A stretch of DNA of 64,000 nt from NCBI RefSeq assembly GCF_002854065.1, contig NZ_CP024147.1. One strand, 5' to 3'. Origin of the DNA: Escherichia coli (lineage in GTDB: Bacteria > Pseudomonadota > Gammaproteobacteria > Enterobacterales > Enterobacteriaceae). Below, piece by piece: positions 33 to 57,780 of the stretch (position 1 is its first letter; every line of letters starts with the position of its first letter). The notes beneath the pieces are model-generated. The model was not told the origin of the DNA. It searched no databases and saw nothing but the letters and a program-made list of their open reading frames with translations. A program made the position numbers and the translations under genes.

Positions 33-1718
33 TTATCCTAATCCTGGCCATACCATGACGATGATTGTCCCTGCCAGCGTCAGCAGGACGTTGGCGATTG
101 CATAGGTGCCCGCATAGCCCAGCGCCGGGATGTTACTGCGAGCTGTATCACTGATGATCTCCATTGCCGGCGCGCAGGTGCGTGCGCCCATCATTGCGCC
201 GAACAACAGTGCGCGGTTCATTCGCAATACATAAGCACCGAACAAGAAACAGATAACTACGGGCACCAGACTGACAATCAATCCGGCAATCAACATCTGG
301 CCGCCAATCGCGCCCAGGCCGTTATTAATACCGCTACCGGCGCTCAGACCAACGCCTGCCATAAACACCATCAAGCCGAACTCTTTCACCATGCTTAATG
401 CACCTTGCGGAATGTAACCGAAGGTCGGGTGGTTAGCACGCATAAAGCCCAGCATAATTCCGGCGAATAACAACCCGGCAGCGTTCCCCATGCCGAAACT
501 GAATGTGCTGAACTGGAAGGTGATCATCCCGATCATCAGCCCAATAACAAAGAAGGCGCAGAATGCCAGCAGGTCAGTGACCTGGCTGTGAATCGAGATA
601 AAGCCGATGCGATCGGCGATGGTTTTTACGCGGCGGGCATCGCCGCTGACTTGTAAAACGTCACCTTTGTTAAGCACGACGTTGTCATCTATCGGCATCT
701 CAATCTGGCTACGAATGACGCGGTTAAGGAAGCAACCGTGATCGGTCAACTTCAGTTGTGCGAGACGTTTGCCAACGGCGTTATGGTTTTTAACGACCAC
801 TTCTTCAGTGACGATACGCATGTCGAGAAGGTCACGATCGAAAACTTCTTTACCGTTACGGAAGCTGGGATCGAGTCGGGCATGGGCGTCGGGATAGCCT
901 ACCAACGCTATTTCATCGCCCATTTGTAGCACGGCATCACCGTCTGGATTTGCCAGAATCCCGTTACGTCGAATACGTTCAATGTAGCAGCCGGTTTGTC
1001 GATAAATACCCAGTTCACGCAGATTTTTGCCGTCGGTCCAGGCCACCAGCTCCGGGCCGACGCGGTAGGCGCGGATCACCGGTAAATAAACTTTACGGTT
1101 GGCATCAGTGTCCAGGCCACGTTCGCGGGCGATTTGCTGGGCGCTGGTCTGTAAGTCCTGATGCTGCAATTTCGGCAAGTAACGCGCACCAACAATCAAA
1201 CTCACCAGACCGATTAAATAGGTTAAGGCATACCCGAGGCTCAGATTATCCAGTGCCAGTGCGAGCTGCCTGCTTTCCATACCGGAATGACGCAGTGTAT
1301 CGCCAGCACCGACCAGAACCGGTGTCGACGTCATAGAGCCTGCTAACATACCGGCCGTCAGGCCAATATCCCAGCCAAACAGCTTACCTAACCCTAAGGC
1401 GATCACCAGCGCACTGCCAACCATCACCAGTGCTAACATTAGGTAATTTTTCCCATCGCGAAAAAAAATGGAAAAAAAGTTCGGTCCGGCTTCGACCCCG
1501 ACGCAGAAAATAAACAGCATAAAGCCAAGATTAAGCGCATCGGTGTTAATGCTGAAATGTTGTTGGCCTAATAACAGCGATACGACTAAAACGCCAATGG
1601 AATTACCCAGTTGGATCGAACCAAGTCGTAACTTTCCGAGACATAGCCCAAGCGCGAGGACCACAAATAATAACAGAATGTAATTCCCATTTAACAATTC
1701 GGCGACGTTTATATTCAC
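33..1718 (-). CDS. ybjL: Putative AAE-family transporter YbjL (561 aa)
   Basis: Full-length ORF with membrane domains flanking a central soluble region; recalled identity and position next to ybjM/grxA. Confidence 0.85.
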
Positions 1719-1987
1719 GGAGGCTAACTTCTTGTTTACTAGTAAGCTGTTGAAAGAAATGGTAATTTACGATAATGTTTTTTACCAGAATTCAGGGCGC
1801 AGATTCATTCAGCGCACCTAAACGATAGTAAAGTAACAATATATTTTACTAGTGTAATCACATTAGGTATCAACGGCTATATGAATTGCGTTGGCCTATA
1901 TTAGCATGGAATGCGAAGCGGCTTTATCTTACTGAACGCCACACTGGCGAAAAATGTGTTCGATAGACGCAGTGTCAGGAGGAACGA

Positions 1988-2365
1988 GTGAAACATAAAC
2001 AACGTTGGGCGGGGGCAATCTGCTGTTTTGTCCTCTTCATTGTGGTGTGCCTTTTTCTGGCGACGCACATGAAAGGCGCTTTTCGGGCTGCCGGGCATCC
2101 TGAAATCGGCTTGCTGTTTTTCATTCTTCCTGGAGCAGTTGCCAGTTTCTTTTCACAGCGTAGAGAAGTCCTGAAACCTCTATTTGGCGCAATGCTGGCG
2201 GCACCCTGTTCAATGCTTATTATGCGGCTGTTTTTTTCACCGACCCGCTCATTCTGGCAAGAGCTGGCATGGTTACTAAGCGCGGTGTTCTGGTGTGCGC
2301 TGGGGGCACTGTGTTTCTTATTTATCAGTAGTTTGTTTAAACCACAGCACAGAAAAAATCAGTAA
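1988..2365 (+). CDS. ybjM: Inner membrane protein YbjM (125 aa), GTG start
   Basis: Hydrophobic 125-aa ORF divergent from ybjL; synteny. Confidence 0.8.
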   Translation: MKHKQRWAGAICCFVLFIVVCLFLATHMKGAFRAAGHPEIGLLFFILPGAVASFFSQRREVLKPLFGAMLAAPCSMLIMRLFFSPTRSFWQELAWLLSAVFWCALGALCFLFISSLFKPQHRKNQ

Positions 2366-2394
2366 AGCCCTCAACGTGAGGGCTCGTCAGACGA

Positions 2395-2652
2395 TCAGGC
2401 GTCCAGATTTTCTTTCACCCATGCAGCAAAATCGGTATAGCCGCCGATATGTTGCTGATCGACAAAAATCTGCGGCACGGTTTCTACGGGTTTACCTGCC
2501 TTTTGTTGTAGATCTTCTTTAGTGATCCCTTCCGCACGAATATCTACATACTGATACTGAAAATCATCGCGTTCATTGCTCAATTTCTCAGCCAGATCTT
2601 TTGCACGCACACAGTAAGGGCAACCCGGACGACCAAAAATAACGGTTTGCAT
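2395..2652 (-). CDS. grxA: Glutaredoxin 1 (85 aa)
   Basis: CPYC active-site motif, MQTVIFGR N-terminus; start trimmed from the ORF track to the ATG giving 85 aa. Confidence 0.9.
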   Translation of the reverse strand: MQTVIFGRPGCPYCVRAKDLAEKLSNERDDFQYQYVDIRAEGITKEDLQQKAGKPVETVPQIFVDQQHIGGYTDFAAWVKENLDA

Positions 2653-2811
2653 TATTTCTCTCCTCATAGATTTATGCCTGTAATGATCACGCTAAAATGT
2701 ATTCGCTGAAAGTAGGTTTAACCTGTTGCATTAATTGCTAAAAGCTATAACTGTTAAACACAATACAGTGAAAAGTTTTAGACTGAAGGCTCACTTTGCA
2801 GAGGGAAGCGT

Positions 2812-3099
2812 ATGCGCGCGATCGGTAAATTGCCTAAGAGCGTGTTGATACTGGAATTTATCGGAATGATGTTGCTGGCGGTGGCGCTGCTGTCGGTAAG
2901 CGACTCCCTGTCGCTGCCTGAGCCATTTTCTCGGCCAGAAGTGCAGATTCTGATGATTTTTCTCGGTGTTTTGCTCATGCTTCCCGCTGCGGTGGTGGTT
3001 ATTCTTCAGGTGGCAAAACGTCTTGCCCCACAGCTGATGAACCGTCCACCGCAATATTCACGTTCAGAAAGAGAAAAAGATAATGACGCCAACCATTGA
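2812..3099 (+). CDS. ybjC: Small membrane protein YbjC (95 aa)
   Basis: ORF immediately upstream of and overlapping the nfsA start; synteny. Confidence 0.75.
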   Translation: MRAIGKLPKSVLILEFIGMMLLAVALLSVSDSLSLPEPFSRPEVQILMIFLGVLLMLPAAVVVILQVAKRLAPQLMNRPPQYSRSEREKDNDANH

Positions 3100-3805
3100 A
3101 CTTATTTGTGGCCATCGCTCCATTCGCCATTTCACTGATGAACCCATTTCCGAGGCGCAGCGTGAGGCGATTATTAACAGCGCCCGTGCGACGTCCAGTT
3201 CCAGTTTTTTGCAGTGTAGTAGCATTATTCGCATTACCGACAAAGCATTACGTGAAGAGCTGGTGACGCTGACCGGCGGGCAAAAACACGTAGCGCAAGC
3301 GGCGGAGTTCTGGGTGTTCTGTGCCGACTTTAACCGCCATTTACAGATCTGTCCGGATGCTCAGCTCGGCCTGGCGGAACAGCTGTTGCTCGGTGTCGTT
3401 GATACGGCAATGATGGCGCAGAATGCATTAACCGCAGCGGAATCGCTGGGATTGGGCGGCGTATATATCGGCGGCCTGCGCAATAATATTGAAGCGGTGA
3501 CGAAACTGCTGAAATTACCGCAGCATGTTCTGCCGCTGTTTGGGCTGTGCCTTGGCTGGCCTGCGGATAATCCGGATCTCAAGCCGCGTTTACCGGCCTC
3601 CATTTTGGTGCATGAAAACAGCTATCAACCGCTGGATAAAGACGCACTGGCGCAGTATGACGAGCAACTGGCGGAATATTACCTCACCCGTGGCAGCAAT
3701 AATCGCCGGGATACCTGGAGCGATCATATCCGCCGAACAATCATTAAAGAAAGCCGCCCATTTATTCTGGATTATTTGCACAAACAGGGTTGGGCGACGC
3801 GCTAA
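3083..3805 (+). CDS. nfsA: Oxygen-insensitive NADPH nitroreductase NfsA (240 aa)
   Basis: Recalled NfsA sequence (MTPTIELICGHRSIRHF...), 240 aa. Confidence 0.9.
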   Translation: MTPTIELICGHRSIRHFTDEPISEAQREAIINSARATSSSSFLQCSSIIRITDKALREELVTLTGGQKHVAQAAEFWVFCADFNRHLQICPDAQLGLAEQLLLGVVDTAMMAQNALTAAESLGLGGVYIGGLRNNIEAVTKLLKLPQHVLPLFGLCLGWPADNPDLKPRLPASILVHENSYQPLDKDALAQYDEQLAEYYLTRGSNNRRDTWSDHIRRTIIKESRPFILDYLHKQGWATR

Positions 3806-3865
3806 AACCGCCACGTCGATGTATGATACGCGGGCTTTTGACCAGGTCTGACAGAGAGGTGCAGG

Positions 3866-4768
3866 GTGAAAATTGCCATATTGTCCCGGGATGGAACGCT
3901 CTATTCGTGTAAGCGGCTGCGTGAAGCCGCTATACAGCGCGGTCACCTGGTTGAAATTCTTGATCCGCTTTCTTGCTACATGAACATAAATCCTGCGGCG
4001 TCTTCTATTCACTACAAAGGCCGCAAGTTACCCCATTTTGACGCAGTGATCCCGCGTATTGGCACCGCCATTACCTTTTATGGGACGGCGGCACTGCGCC
4101 AGTTCGAGATGCTGGGGAGCTATCCGCTCAATGAGTCGGTCGCCATTGCCCGGGCGCGTGACAAATTGCGTTCCATGCAACTGCTGGCGCGTCAGGGCAT
4201 CGACCTGCCTGTCACGGGCATTGCGCATTCGCCGGATGATACCAGCGATTTAATCGACATGGTCGGTGGTGCGCCGCTGGTGGTCAAGTTGGTTGAAGGC
4301 ACGCAGGGAATTGGCGTCGTGCTGGCGGAGACGCGTCAGGCGGCGGAAAGCGTGATTGACGCTTTCCGCGGTCTGAACGCGCATATTCTGGTGCAGGAAT
4401 ATATCAAAGAGGCGCAAGGGTGCGATATCCGCTGTCTGGTTGTTGGCGATGAAGTGGTCGCTGCGATTGAACGGCGGGCGAAAGAGGGCGATTTTCGTTC
4501 CAATTTGCATCGTGGCGGCGCGGCAAGCGTCGCCAGTATCACACCACAGGAGCGTGAAATCGCGATAAAAGCCGCGCGAACGATGGCGCTGGACGTTGCT
4601 GGTGTGGATATTCTGCGTGCTAATCGCGGGCCGTTGGTGATGGAAGTGAATGCGTCGCCGGGGCTGGAAGGAATAGAAAAAACCACCGGTATCGACATCG
4701 CGGGTAAAATGATCCGCTGGATCGAACGCCACGCTACGACAGAATATTGCCTGAAAACGGGTGGTTAG
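3866..4768 (+). CDS. rimK: Ribosomal protein S6 glutamate ligase RimK (300 aa), GTG start
   Basis: ATP-grasp family sequence, 300 aa, synteny. Confidence 0.9.
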
Positions 4769-4855
4769 TCGCAATCACATTACTGATCATGGTTTTGCCT
4801 GCGCTTTTTGCGTAAGCTGTGCCGGTCTTTTTATCGAAAGAGGTTGTACAAAATT

Positions 4856-5332
4856 ATGACATCGCTGGTCGTTCCTGGTCTGGATACGCTGCGTCAATGG
4901 CTCGATGACCTGGGGATGAGTTTTTTTGAATGTGATAACTGTCAGGCTCTGCATCTGCCCCATATGCAGAATTTCGACGGTGTCTTTGATGCCAAAATCG
5001 ATTTGATCGATAACACGATCCTGTTTTCTGCCATGGCGGAAGTCCGACCTTCAGCCGTATTGCCGCTGGCGGCGGATTTATCTGCCATCAATGCCAGTTC
5101 GCTGACCGTGAAAGCATTTCTTGATATGCAGGATGATAATCTGCCAAAACTGGTGGTTTGCCAGTCTTTATCCGTTATGCAGGGCGTAACCTATGAGCAG
5201 TTTGCATGGTTCGTGCGTCAGAGCGAAGAGCAGATTTCGATGGTCATTCTTGAAGCTAATGCCCATCAACTGCTGTTACCGACTGACGATGAAGGGCAAA
5301 ACAACGTTACCGAAAACTATTTCCTCCACTGA
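4856..5332 (+). CDS. ybjN: YbjN family protein (158 aa)
   Basis: ORF track 4808..5332; start moved to the ATG at 4856 (MTSLVVPG...). Confidence 0.8.
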   Translation: MTSLVVPGLDTLRQWLDDLGMSFFECDNCQALHLPHMQNFDGVFDAKIDLIDNTILFSAMAEVRPSAVLPLAADLSAINASSLTVKAFLDMQDDNLPKLVVCQSLSVMQGVTYEQFAWFVRQSEEQISMVILEANAHQLLLPTDDEGQNNVTENYFLH

Positions 5333-5682
5333 TAACTCCTTTCGAGCACGCAGTCGCTGCCGCAGTGACTGCGCGCTGCAATATTATCTGCTGTTTTTAA
5401 CCTTTTCTTAAAGATTATTTCACTTCTCTTGTGTCGATTTGGCTTTATCACATAGAGCAAATACGCATAAAAATTTGTTAAATACCGTTTTTTAATCCGA
5501 GCTATAGTCTCAAACCCTGGCTAAAGTTATTCTTGCGATGCTTTTATATAGCGAGCAGTGCTGGCCGGGAGAGAGTTCTCTTTTCTTACACCGCGCCGAT
5601 AAAAAATATGCACGTTTATTGCATATCTTTCAGTGTGACAACTTTTGTTCGTTTGTTAACGAACTTTCAGAAGGAAAGAGAT

Positions 5683-53673: not shown

Positions 53674-56600
53674 TTGAGCCAGGAATACACTGAAGACAAA
53701 GAAGTCACATTGACAAAGTTAAGTAGCGGCCGCCGCCTTCTGGAGGCGTTGCTGATCCTTATTGTCCTGTTTGCCGTCTGGTTGATGGCTGCCTTACTAA
53801 GCTTTAACCCTTCGGACCCCAGCTGGTCGCAAACGGCCTGGCATGAACCTATCCATAATTTAGGTGGGATGCCCGGTGCGTGGTTGGCAGATACGCTGTT
53901 CTTTATTTTTGGCGTGATGGCTTACACCATTCCCGTCATTATTGTCGGCGGTTGTTGGTTTGCCTGGCGTCATCAGTCCAGCGACGAATACATTGATTAT
54001 TTTGCCGTTTCGCTACGCATCATTGGCGTTTTGGCGCTCATCCTTACCTCCTGTGGTCTGGCGGCAATCAACGCTGACGATATCTGGTATTTTGCCTCCG
54101 GTGGCGTCATTGGCAGCTTACTAAGCACTACGCTACAACCACTGCTACACAGTAGCGGGGGAACTATTGCGCTGCTCTGCGTTTGGGCAGCGGGCCTGAC
54201 GTTGTTCACCGGTTGGTCATGGGTGACCATTGCTGAAAAACTCGGCGGCTGGATTTTAAACATTCTCACCTTCGCCAGTAATCGTACCCGTCGCGATGAT
54301 ACCTGGGTCGATGAAGATGAGTATGAAGACGACGAAGAGTATGAAGATGAAAATCACGGCAAACAGCATGAATCACGCCGTGCCCGTATTCTTCGCGGCG
54401 CGCTAGCGCGTCGTAAACGGTTGGCGGAAAAATTCATTAATCCGATGGGGCGGCAAACAGACGCTGCGTTGTTCTCCGGTAAGCGGATGGATGATGACGA
54501 AGAGATTACCTACACTGCACGCGGTGTGGCTGCCGACCCGGACGACGTCCTATTTTCGGGCAATCGTGCAACGCAGCCAGAATATGACGAATACGATCCA
54601 TTATTAAACGGTGCGCCAATTACCGAACCTGTCGCTGTAGCAGCTGCTGCTACCACGGCGACGCAAAGCTGGGCTGCACCGGTTGAACCTGTGACTCAGA
54701 CGCCACCTGTTGCCTCTGTTGATGTTCCACCTGCGCAACCTACAGTAGCCTGGCAGCCTGTACCGGGTCCACAAACGGGAGAGCCGGTTATTGCTCCTGC
54801 ACCGGAAGGTTACCCACAGCAGTCACAATATGCGCAGCCTGCAGTGCAATATAATGAGCCGCTGCAACAACCAGTACAGCCGCAGCAGCCGTATTATGCA
54901 CCTGCAGCTGAACAACCTGCGCAACAACCTTACTACGCTCCTGCGGCGGAACAACCTGTTCAGCAACCGTATTACGCAACTGCGCCGGAACAGCCTGCGC
55001 AACAGCCGTATTATGCCCCTGCGCCAGAACAACCGGTGGCAGGTAACGCCTGGCAAGCCGAAGAGCAGCAATCCACTTTTGCTCCACAGTCTACATACCA
55101 GACTGAGCAAACTTATCAGCAGCCAGCCGCTCAGGAGCCGTTGTACCAACAGCCGCAACCTGTTGAACAGCAGCCTGTTGTGGAGCCTGAACCCGTTGTA
55201 GAAGAGACAAAACCCGCGCGTCCGCCGCTTTACTACTTTGAAGAAGTGGAAGAGAAGCGAGCCCGTGAACGTGAACAACTTGCGGCCTGGTATCAACCGA
55301 TTCCAGAACCGGTTAAAGAACCAGAACCGATCAAATCTTCGCTGAAAGCACCTTCTGTTGCAGCAGTACCTCCAGTAGAAGCCGCTGCCGCTGTTTCTCC
55401 GCTGGCATCTGGCGTGAAAAAAGCGACACTGGCGACGGGGGCTGCCGCAACCGTTGCCGCGCCAGTCTTCAGTCTGGCAAATAGCGGTGGACCGCGTCCG
55501 CAGGTCAAAGAGGGGATTGGCCCGCAGTTGCCACGACCGAAACGTATCCGCGTGCCAACTCGTCGTGAATTGGCGTCTTACGGTATTAAACTGCCCTCAC
55601 AGCGTGCGGCGGAAGAAAAAGCCCGTGAAGCCCAGCGCAATCAGTACGATTCTGGCGATCAGTACAACGATGATGAAATCGATGCGATGCAGCAGGATGA
55701 ACTGGCACGTCAGTTCGCCCAGACACAGCAGCAACGCTATGGCGAACAGTATCAACATGATGTGCCCGTAAACGCAGAAGATGCAGATGCTGCGGCAGAG
55801 GCTGAACTGGCTCGTCAGTTTGCGCAAACTCAACAACAACGTTATTCCGGCGAACAACCGGCTGGGGCGAATCCGTTCTCGCTGGATGATTTTGAATTTT
55901 CGCCAATGAAAGCGTTGCTGGATGATGGTCCACACGAACCGTTGTTTACGCCAATTGTTGAACCTGTACAGCAGCCGCAACAACCGGTTGCACCGCAGCA
56001 GCAGTATCAGCAGCCACAACAGCCGGTTGCGCCACAGCAGCAATATCAGCAGCCGCAACAACCGGTTGCACCGCAGCAGCAATATCAGCAGCCGCAACAA
56101 CCGGTTGCACCGCAGCCGCAATATCAGCAGCCGCAACAGCCAGTTGCGCCGCAGCCGCAGTATCAGCAGCCACAACAATCGGCTGCACCACAGCAGCAAT
56201 ATCAGCAGCCGCAACAGCCAGTTGCGCCACAGCCGCAGGATACTCTGCTTCATCCGCTGTTGATGCGTAATGGCGACAGCCGTCCGTTGCATAAACCGAC
56301 GACGCCGCTGCCTTCTCTGGATTTGCTGACACCGCCGCCGAGCGAAGTGGAGCCGGTAGATACCTTTGCGCTTGAACAAATGGCTCGCCTGGTGGAAGCG
56401 CGTCTGGCTGATTTCCGTATTAAAGCCGATGTCGTCAATTACTCTCCGGGGCCGGTTATCACTCGCTTTGAACTTAACCTGGCACCGGGCGTAAAAGCGG
56501 CGCGCATTTCTAACTTGTCACGGGACCTTGCCCGTTCACTTTCGACGGTGGCGGTGCGTGTCGTTGAAGTTATTCCTGGCAAACCCTATGTAGGTCTGGA

Positions 56601-57780
56601 GTTACCGAATAAAAAACGACAAACCGTTTATCTGCGCGAAGTATTGGATAACGCCAAATTCCGCGATAATCCATCGCCATTAACCGTGGTGCTGGGTAAA
56701 GATATCGCCGGTGAGCCGGTGGTTGCCGATCTGGCGAAAATGCCGCACTTGTTGGTTGCGGGGACTACCGGTTCCGGTAAATCTGTCGGTGTGAACGCGA
56801 TGATCCTGAGCATGCTTTATAAAGCACAGCCAGAAGATGTGCGTTTCATCATGATCGACCCGAAAATGCTGGAGCTTTCGGTGTATGAAGGCATTCCGCA
56901 CCTGTTAACGGAAGTCGTTACTGATATGAAAGATGCCGCCAACGCGCTGCGCTGGTGTGTTAACGAGATGGAGCGTCGGTATAAACTGATGTCTGCGCTG
57001 GGTGTGCGTAATCTGGCGGGTTATAACGAAAAAATTGCTGAAGCCGATCGCATGATGCGTCCGATTCCAGACCCGTACTGGAAGCCGGGTGACAGTATGG
57101 ATGCCCAGCATCCGGTGCTGAAAAAAGAACCATACATTGTGGTGTTGGTTGACGAATTTGCCGACCTGATGATGACGGTAGGTAAAAAAGTGGAAGAGCT
57201 GATAGCACGTCTGGCGCAAAAAGCCCGTGCCGCGGGTATCCACCTCGTACTGGCAACTCAGCGTCCATCGGTTGATGTTATTACTGGTCTGATTAAAGCG
57301 AATATTCCGACCCGTATCGCCTTTACCGTATCCAGTAAGATTGACTCACGTACCATTCTTGATCAGGCTGGCGCGGAATCACTGCTGGGTATGGGGGATA
57401 TGCTCTACTCTGGGCCGAACTCCACGTTGCCGGTACGTGTCCATGGTGCTTTTGTTCGCGATCAGGAAGTTCATGCCGTGGTGCAGGACTGGAAAGCGCG
57501 TGGTCGCCCACAGTATGTTGATGGCATCACCTCCGACAGCGAAAGCGAAGGTGGTGCGGGTGGTTTCGATGGCGCTGAAGAACTGGATCCGTTGTTCGAT
57601 CAGGCGGTGCAGTTTGTCACTGAAAAACGCAAAGCGTCAATTTCTGGCGTACAGCGTCAGTTCCGCATTGGTTATAACCGTGCAGCGCGTATTATCGAAC
57701 AGATGGAAGCGCAGGGAATTGTCAGCGAACAGGGGCACAACGGTAATCGTGAAGTGCTGGCCCCACCGCCGTTTGACTAA
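53674..57780 (+). CDS. ftsK: DNA translocase FtsK (1368 aa), TTG start, long Pro/Gln-rich linker
   Basis: N-terminal membrane domain, linker repeats, C-terminal motor with Walker A GTTGSGKS and gamma domain; ggagag Shine-Dalgarno before the TTG. Confidence 0.95.
54884..55039 (+). repeat. Four tandem in-frame 39-bp repeats in the ftsK linker (13-aa unit [13 protein letters not shown])
   Basis: Directly visible tandem units 54884..54922, 54923..54961, 54962..55000, 55001..55039. Confidence 0.85.
55969..56239 (+). repeat. About 6.4 tandem in-frame 42-bp repeats in the ftsK linker (14-aa unit [14 protein letters not shown])
   Basis: Directly visible repeating cagcagccgcaacaaccggttgcaccgcagcagcaatat units with Q/P and one PV-to-SA variant. 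Confidence 0.85.

Follow-up and report, generated by a model that had tools for sequence, protein, structure and literature searches.

Two tandem-repeat tracts in the linker of Escherichia coli FtsK are known coding minisatellites, ms06 and ms07/CVN001

Introduction

The typing loci ms06 and ms07 of Escherichia coli were reportedly described by Gorge et al. in 2008, and CVN001 is said to originate from the generic E. coli MLVA of Lindstedt et al. in 2007. Two of these names denote one locus, which is labelled "ms07 (CVN001)" in PMC4553163. In E. coli, ms06 has alleles 2, 3, and 4, with amplicons of 301-379 bp, and ms07 has 1-12 units, with amplicons of 392-821 bp (PMC8215070). Among Swedish ESBL-producing E. 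coli, CVN001 shows alleles 4-8, with alleles 5 and 6 at 40% each (PMC5217547).

The closest systems outside E. coli are found in Salmonella. The VNTR in Salmonella ftsK is STTR7/SENTR2, which has a 39-bp unit and is present in 9.3 copies in S. Enteritidis NCTC 13349 (PMC2430564), and in-frame indels of the ftsK repeat occur between Salmonella isolates (PMC6137255). When ftsK alleles that lie two linker repeats apart were exchanged between two S. Enteritidis strains, egg-white survival, which was the only phenotype reported, remained unchanged (PMC6137255). The tolA locus (SENTR1, 45-bp unit), which is listed with ftsK in PMC2430564, likewise carries in-frame units in a low-complexity extended region and varies by whole units without disruption of the protein.

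The linker of E. coli FtsK, of about 650 amino acids, is unstructured and Pro/Gln-rich, and its length differs among species (PMC5357621). Normal activity of FtsK depends on it, and some of its segments contact FtsQ, FtsL, FtsI, and FtsZ (Bigot 2004 and Dubarry 2010, summarised in PMC5357621). In this study, we analysed two tandem-repeat tracts in the ftsK linker of an E. coli DNA stretch of 64,000 nucleotides (contig NZ_CP024147.1), hereafter called the window. We conclude with high confidence that they are two known coding minisatellites (VNTRs), array 1 being ms06 and array 2 being ms07/CVN001.

Results

The ftsK gene and its protein domains

The gene and the domains of its product are arranged in the window as follows.

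53674..57780, plus strand: ftsK coding sequence (DNA translocase FtsK), TTG start, 1368 amino acids plus stop, from the ORF list and its translation
53731..54246, plus strand: FtsK_4TM membrane domain, amino acids 20-191 (PF13491, E = 5.4e-42)
54247..56307, plus strand: Pro/Gln-rich linker, amino acids 192-878, which holds both arrays
56308..57762, plus strand: C-terminal motor, composed of FtsK_alpha (amino acids 879-979, PF17854), the FtsK_SpoIIIE ATPase (amino acids 987-1200, PF01580), and FtsK_gamma (amino acids 1303-1363, PF09397)

All four Pfam domains that characterize an FtsK/SpoIIIE translocase (PF13491, PF17854, PF01580, and PF09397) score well over their cut-offs, and only 19 of the 3678 nucleotides outside the repeats differ from K-12 ftsK, as is expected of the E. 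coli FtsK orthologue. RefSeq labels as ftsK the sequence of strain 100416 (Gambia), which is identical to that of the window. The Pfam search of FtsK gave no match in the linker (amino acids 192-878); both arrays lie outside every Pfam domain, and about 23 residues separate the end of array 2 from the alpha domain.

The gene order lrp-ftsK-lolA-rarA is conserved in the RefSeq records of 17 strains. In strain GF43 (NZ_CP172127.1), the transposase gene of IS1397, an IS3-family element, lies directly 3' of ftsK (4654-5592), in the position held by lolA in the other strains. In strain 2014C-4135 (NZ_CP027310.1), the gene on the 5' side of ftsK, lrp, is annotated as a pseudogene with a frameshift (1166-1659), which may reflect either an error in sequencing or a genuine loss of Lrp.

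Weaker repetition is also present in the linker. A 9-bp repeat of 3.2 copies (54319-54347, TRF score 37) forms an acidic tract near the linker start. One 14-amino-acid peptide occurs twice between the arrays, at 55699-55740 and 55804-55845, 105 bp apart, and its DNA copies are too diverged for the repeat search at the settings used. The 38 bp just 5' of array 1 (54857-54894) are 79% identical to an array 2 unit, and the two arrays may be of common origin.

Tandem structure of the two arrays

Both arrays are in frame with the 1368-amino-acid ORF (53674-57780).

54883..55038, plus strand: array 1, 4 x 39 bp, 13-amino-acid unit ending in A/V, amino acids 404-455 (ms06 allele 4)
55969..56238, plus strand: array 2, 6 x 39 + 36 bp, 13-amino-acid unit ending in (Q/P)QY, amino acids 766-855 (ms07 = CVN001)

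No other strong tandem repeat is present in the 64-kb window, and the 930 bp that separate them (55039-55968) are not tandem. TRF located array 1 at 54881-55034, with a period of 39, 3.9 copies, 77% matches, and a score of 175; read as period 78, the same array scores 206. Array 2 was located at 55969-56237, with a period of 39, 6.9 copies, 86% matches, and a score of 398, and its 39-bp unit has an inner sub-period of 21 + 18 bp. When the codons of the linker were shuffled 200 times and rescored by TRF, the top score was 81 and none of the 200 shuffles reached 175; neither chance nor composition can therefore account for the arrays.

The outer limits given by the first-pass annotation (54884-56239) are right to within 1-2 bp, and its reading of the first tract as four in-frame units of 39 bp is borne out by both TRF and the unit table. 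The second tract had been described as 6.4 units of 42 bp; it is indeed in frame, with a total length of about 269 bp, but the unit is 39 bp, repeated 6.9 times, and a period of 42 bp is ruled out, as TRF and the unit table give 39 bp only. The description of the units as nearly identical at the nucleotide level was overstated, because the units of array 1 share on average 78% identity in pairwise comparison, and those of array 2 share 88.5% (range, 77-97%). The codon differences between units are 35 synonymous versus 11 nonsynonymous in array 1, and 66 versus 24 in array 2.

Correspondence with published typing loci

The published primers for ms06, ms07, and CVN001 all match the window exactly at the following sites.

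54773..54792, plus strand: ms06 forward primer site (PMC4553163 Table 1; PMC8215070 Table 1)
55132..55151, minus strand: ms06 reverse primer site, amplicon of 379 bp
55709..55728, plus strand: ms07 forward primer site (PMC4553163)
56315..56334, minus strand: ms07 reverse primer site, amplicon of 626 bp
55856..55874, plus strand: CVN001 forward primer site (PMC8143711 Table 1)
56320..56339, minus strand: CVN001 reverse primer site, amplicon of 484 bp

The primers bracket the arrays exactly, and none of them was found to be misplaced. Array 1 lies between the ms06 primers, has the 39-bp unit, and occurs with 2, 3, and 4 units among strains. Its 379-bp amplicon is the published maximum for ms06 and represents the longest common allele, and there is no material difference from the published locus. 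Array 2 lies inside both the ms07 and the CVN001 amplicons, has the 39-bp unit, and is polymorphic in copy number. Applied to the amplicon of 484 bp, the published CVN001 formula, (PS-250)/39, assigns the window to allele 6 (formula from PMC8143711); codon register gives 7 units, because the last unit of array 2 is 36 bp. The array 2 unit string of the window, ABCDEFG, which includes a QQSAAPQQQ unit, is uncommon (only 21 of the 5,426 records reach an identity of 99% or more across this region), and nothing else material differs from ms07/CVN001.

By primer mapping, ms06, ms07, and CVN001 are thus hosted by ftsK in E. coli. The first-pass annotation missed that both tracts are standard MLVA markers. 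None of the open papers covered on ftsK, VNTRs, and E. coli gives ftsK as the gene in which CVN001, ms06, or ms07 lies in E. coli, the original locus descriptions being outside that coverage.

Copy number among strains

Each array was searched with its flanks by BLAST against 5,426 complete E. coli genomes, and population frequencies were taken from 60 rows per array, spaced evenly down the BLAST ranking, rather than from a full count. In addition, ftsK was fetched from 17 RefSeq E. coli strains picked across length classes, which together with the window gives 18 sequences. At least one unit is kept in all 5,425 genomes with a match, and one of the 5,426 genomes gave no match to the ftsK repeat regions in the BLAST search. 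In the two genome searches, 14 and 8 matches to the ftsK repeat regions sit on plasmid-labelled records.

For array 1, the matched region measures 401, about 361, or 323 bp, corresponding to 4, 3, and 2 units, and each length class makes up about one-third of the 60 rows. The 2-unit allele is found in K-12 and O157:H7 and the 3-unit allele in BL21 and UTI89; the window carries 4 units. In the 60 rows for array 2, 7 units account for ~45%, 6 units for ~35%, and 8-9 units for ~10%, and 5 units or 1 unit are rare. Expressed in CVN001 terms, allele 5 (6 units) is at ~35% and allele 6 (7 units) at ~45%, in agreement with PMC5217547. The O157:H7 strains carry one common allele, as do the K-12 derivatives.

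Among the 18 sequences, the unit counts are 2-4 for array 1 and 1, 5, 6, 7, 8, or 9 for array 2, and FtsK ranges from 1264 to 1381 amino acids. With both arrays removed, ftsK is exactly 3678 nucleotides in all 18 sequences; therefore, all of the variation in FtsK length lies in the two arrays. The first-pass annotation had given a shorter FtsK for K-12, of roughly 1329 amino acids, and this is confirmed: K-12 MG1655 FtsK has 1329 amino acids (2 + 6 units), compared with 1368 in the window (4 + 7 units), and the excess of 39 amino acids equals two units in array 1 plus one unit in array 2. Its view of the tracts as VNTR-like and changing in copy number is supported as well, a uniform unit count being absent among the strains.

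Two kinds of allele depart from the common series. In the B2-type strains 23AR1217, Nissle 1917, and UTI89, array 2 contains in its middle a partial unit of 15 bp, CAGCAGCCGCAATAT (QQPQY); consequently, the lengths of B2-type amplicons fall between whole multiples of 39 bp and would be rounded in gel-based MLVA. Strain 25403 (NZ_CP195555.1; urine, Egypt; ftsK at 503-4297) has just one unit in array 2, with an FtsK of 1264 amino acids, which is either a natural near-complete deletion or an assembly collapse.

Traces of copy-number change

Alleles of different length are found on nearly identical gene backgrounds. K-12 (CHIJKL, 6 units) differs from PK6 (HIJKL, 5 units) at 1 of the 3678 non-repeat bases and from strain 25403 (L only, 1 unit) at 4 of them. 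Tandem duplications of blocks of one or two units are seen, namely VV in 23AR1217 and UTI89, AeAe in 31B19CPO010B, and ijij in GPEC856, and the three-unit allele ABI of array 1 contains a chimeric unit, I, that combines the 5' part of C with the 3' part of D. The duplicated blocks and the C/D chimera are the products expected of out-of-register pairing of neighbouring units. Neighbouring units would mispair, either through slippage during replication or through an unequal exchange involving sister copies, and whole units would be gained or lost as a result; point mutations, mainly synonymous, would slowly diversify the units. Either slippage or recombination could be the molecular mechanism, as far as the allele sequences suggest.

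Because the 39-bp unit corresponds to 13 codons, gain or loss of a unit never shifts the reading frame. The units (39 bp) and the partial units (36 and 15 bp) are all multiples of three, unlike those of a phase-variable contingency locus, and the frame is intact in all 18 alleles. A locus for phase variation by frameshift is ruled out on these grounds.

Antisense and off-frame ORFs

The minus-strand ORFs of at least 100 amino acids within 54884-56239, the range of the first-pass annotation, and the off-frame sense ORFs that overlap the arrays are as follows.

54823-55296, minus strand: antisense ORF of 157 amino acids, through array 1, judged spurious
55586-55933, minus strand: antisense ORF of 115 amino acids
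55597-56379, minus strand: longest antisense ORF, 260 amino acids, through array 2, judged spurious
55946-56332, minus strand: antisense ORF of 128 amino acids
54791-55201 and 55922-56263, plus strand: off-frame sense ORFs overlapping the arrays

The long spurious antisense ORFs mentioned in the first-pass annotation are thus present, and three of the four on the minus strand overlap an array. Four of the five alternative frames are stop-free in array 2, and three of the five are stop-free in array 1. The 17 RefSeq records annotate none of the antisense or off-frame ORFs and show ftsK as the only gene there.

Discussion

The feature described here is already known, ordinary, and in routine use. 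STTR7/SENTR2 of Salmonella resembles the E. coli arrays in having a 39-bp unit in the ftsK linker, whereas it belongs to another species and has another copy number, and its orthology to array 2 is assumed. The tolA locus SENTR1 differs in both gene and unit, and its likeness to the ftsK arrays is by kind only.

Tandem repeats are a classic cause of assembly error, and the single-unit allele of strain 25403 is itself a candidate for assembly collapse. If the repeat had been mis-expanded in the assembly of the window, the true gene would resemble that of K-12. The chance of this is minute: the independent chromosome of strain 100416 is 100% identical over the whole gene, both arrays included; identity of at least 99% is found in 21 records over array 2 and in 746 over array 1; the arrays, at 156 and 270 bp, are shorter than a single read; and the allele sizes obtained by PCR agree, that of 379 bp for ms06 among them (PMC8215070). 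With an identical independent genome and agreeing published PCR sizes, an assembly artefact is ruled out. It is equally far-fetched that a genuine overlapping gene, for which the repeats are retained, is present among the long antisense and off-frame ORFs. ORFs of 113-260 amino acids do overlap the arrays, and most of the alternative frames are stop-free, but this scarcity of stops is explained by the codon content, since CAG, CAA, CCG, and GCN and their reverse complements give no stops in those frames. The products would be low-complexity repeats of the Leu/Arg/Cys/Trp type, and the synonymous-biased variation suits the ftsK frame. Codon composition and the lack of annotation in the 17 RefSeq records together rule out antisense genes.

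The most likely role of the repeats would be to provide extra length in a flexible tether. Unit number would only lengthen or shorten the disordered Pro/Gln-rich tether that runs from the four-transmembrane septal anchor to the hexameric DNA motor, and it would be largely, though not provably, near-neutral. The differences between units are mostly synonymous and at least one unit is kept in 5,425 genomes, which indicates that the peptide is under some constraint. On the other hand, the copy number could be adaptively tuned, with the repeats acting as functional modules (for example, in binding partners in the divisome or as a calibrated spacer), the counts selected by lineage, and the unit count altering the coupling of cell division to chromosome dimer resolution. 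We regard such tuning as unlikely, even though several observations are in keeping with it: conservation is stronger in the peptide than in the DNA (66 synonymous versus 24 nonsynonymous and 35 versus 11), the arrays are present in 5,425 of the 5,426 genomes and in Salmonella, and the linker is needed for FtsK activity and contacts FtsQ, FtsL, FtsI, and FtsZ (PMC5357621). Copy number also follows lineage, as in the O157:H7 strains and the K-12 derivatives, but a slow neutral VNTR would do so too. Against tuning stand a natural urine isolate that has one array 2 unit in an otherwise K-12-like gene, the nearly equal frequencies of the array 1 alleles of 2, 3, and 4 units, and the unchanged egg-white survival, the only phenotype reported, after allele exchange in Salmonella (PMC6137255).

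The importance of the finding is slight past bookkeeping, and no surprise is indicated. The two tracts account for the differing annotated lengths of E. coli FtsK (1264-1381 amino acids in the 18 sequences), and such differences in ftsK length should not be mistaken for truncation or faulty assembly. Over the arrays, ORF callers will give long spurious ORFs. The tracts already serve MLVA typing of E. coli, Shigella, and Salmonella, and the natural series of 1-9 units is a ready set of alleles with which linker length can be tested against FtsK function. That the natural variation in linker length (1264-1381 amino acids, including the one-unit isolate) measurably tunes the reach of the FtsK motor from the septum seems to us quite improbable; if it did, the timing or efficiency of dimer resolution and division would be altered, and the ms06 and ms07 alleles would be selected traits rather than neutral markers.
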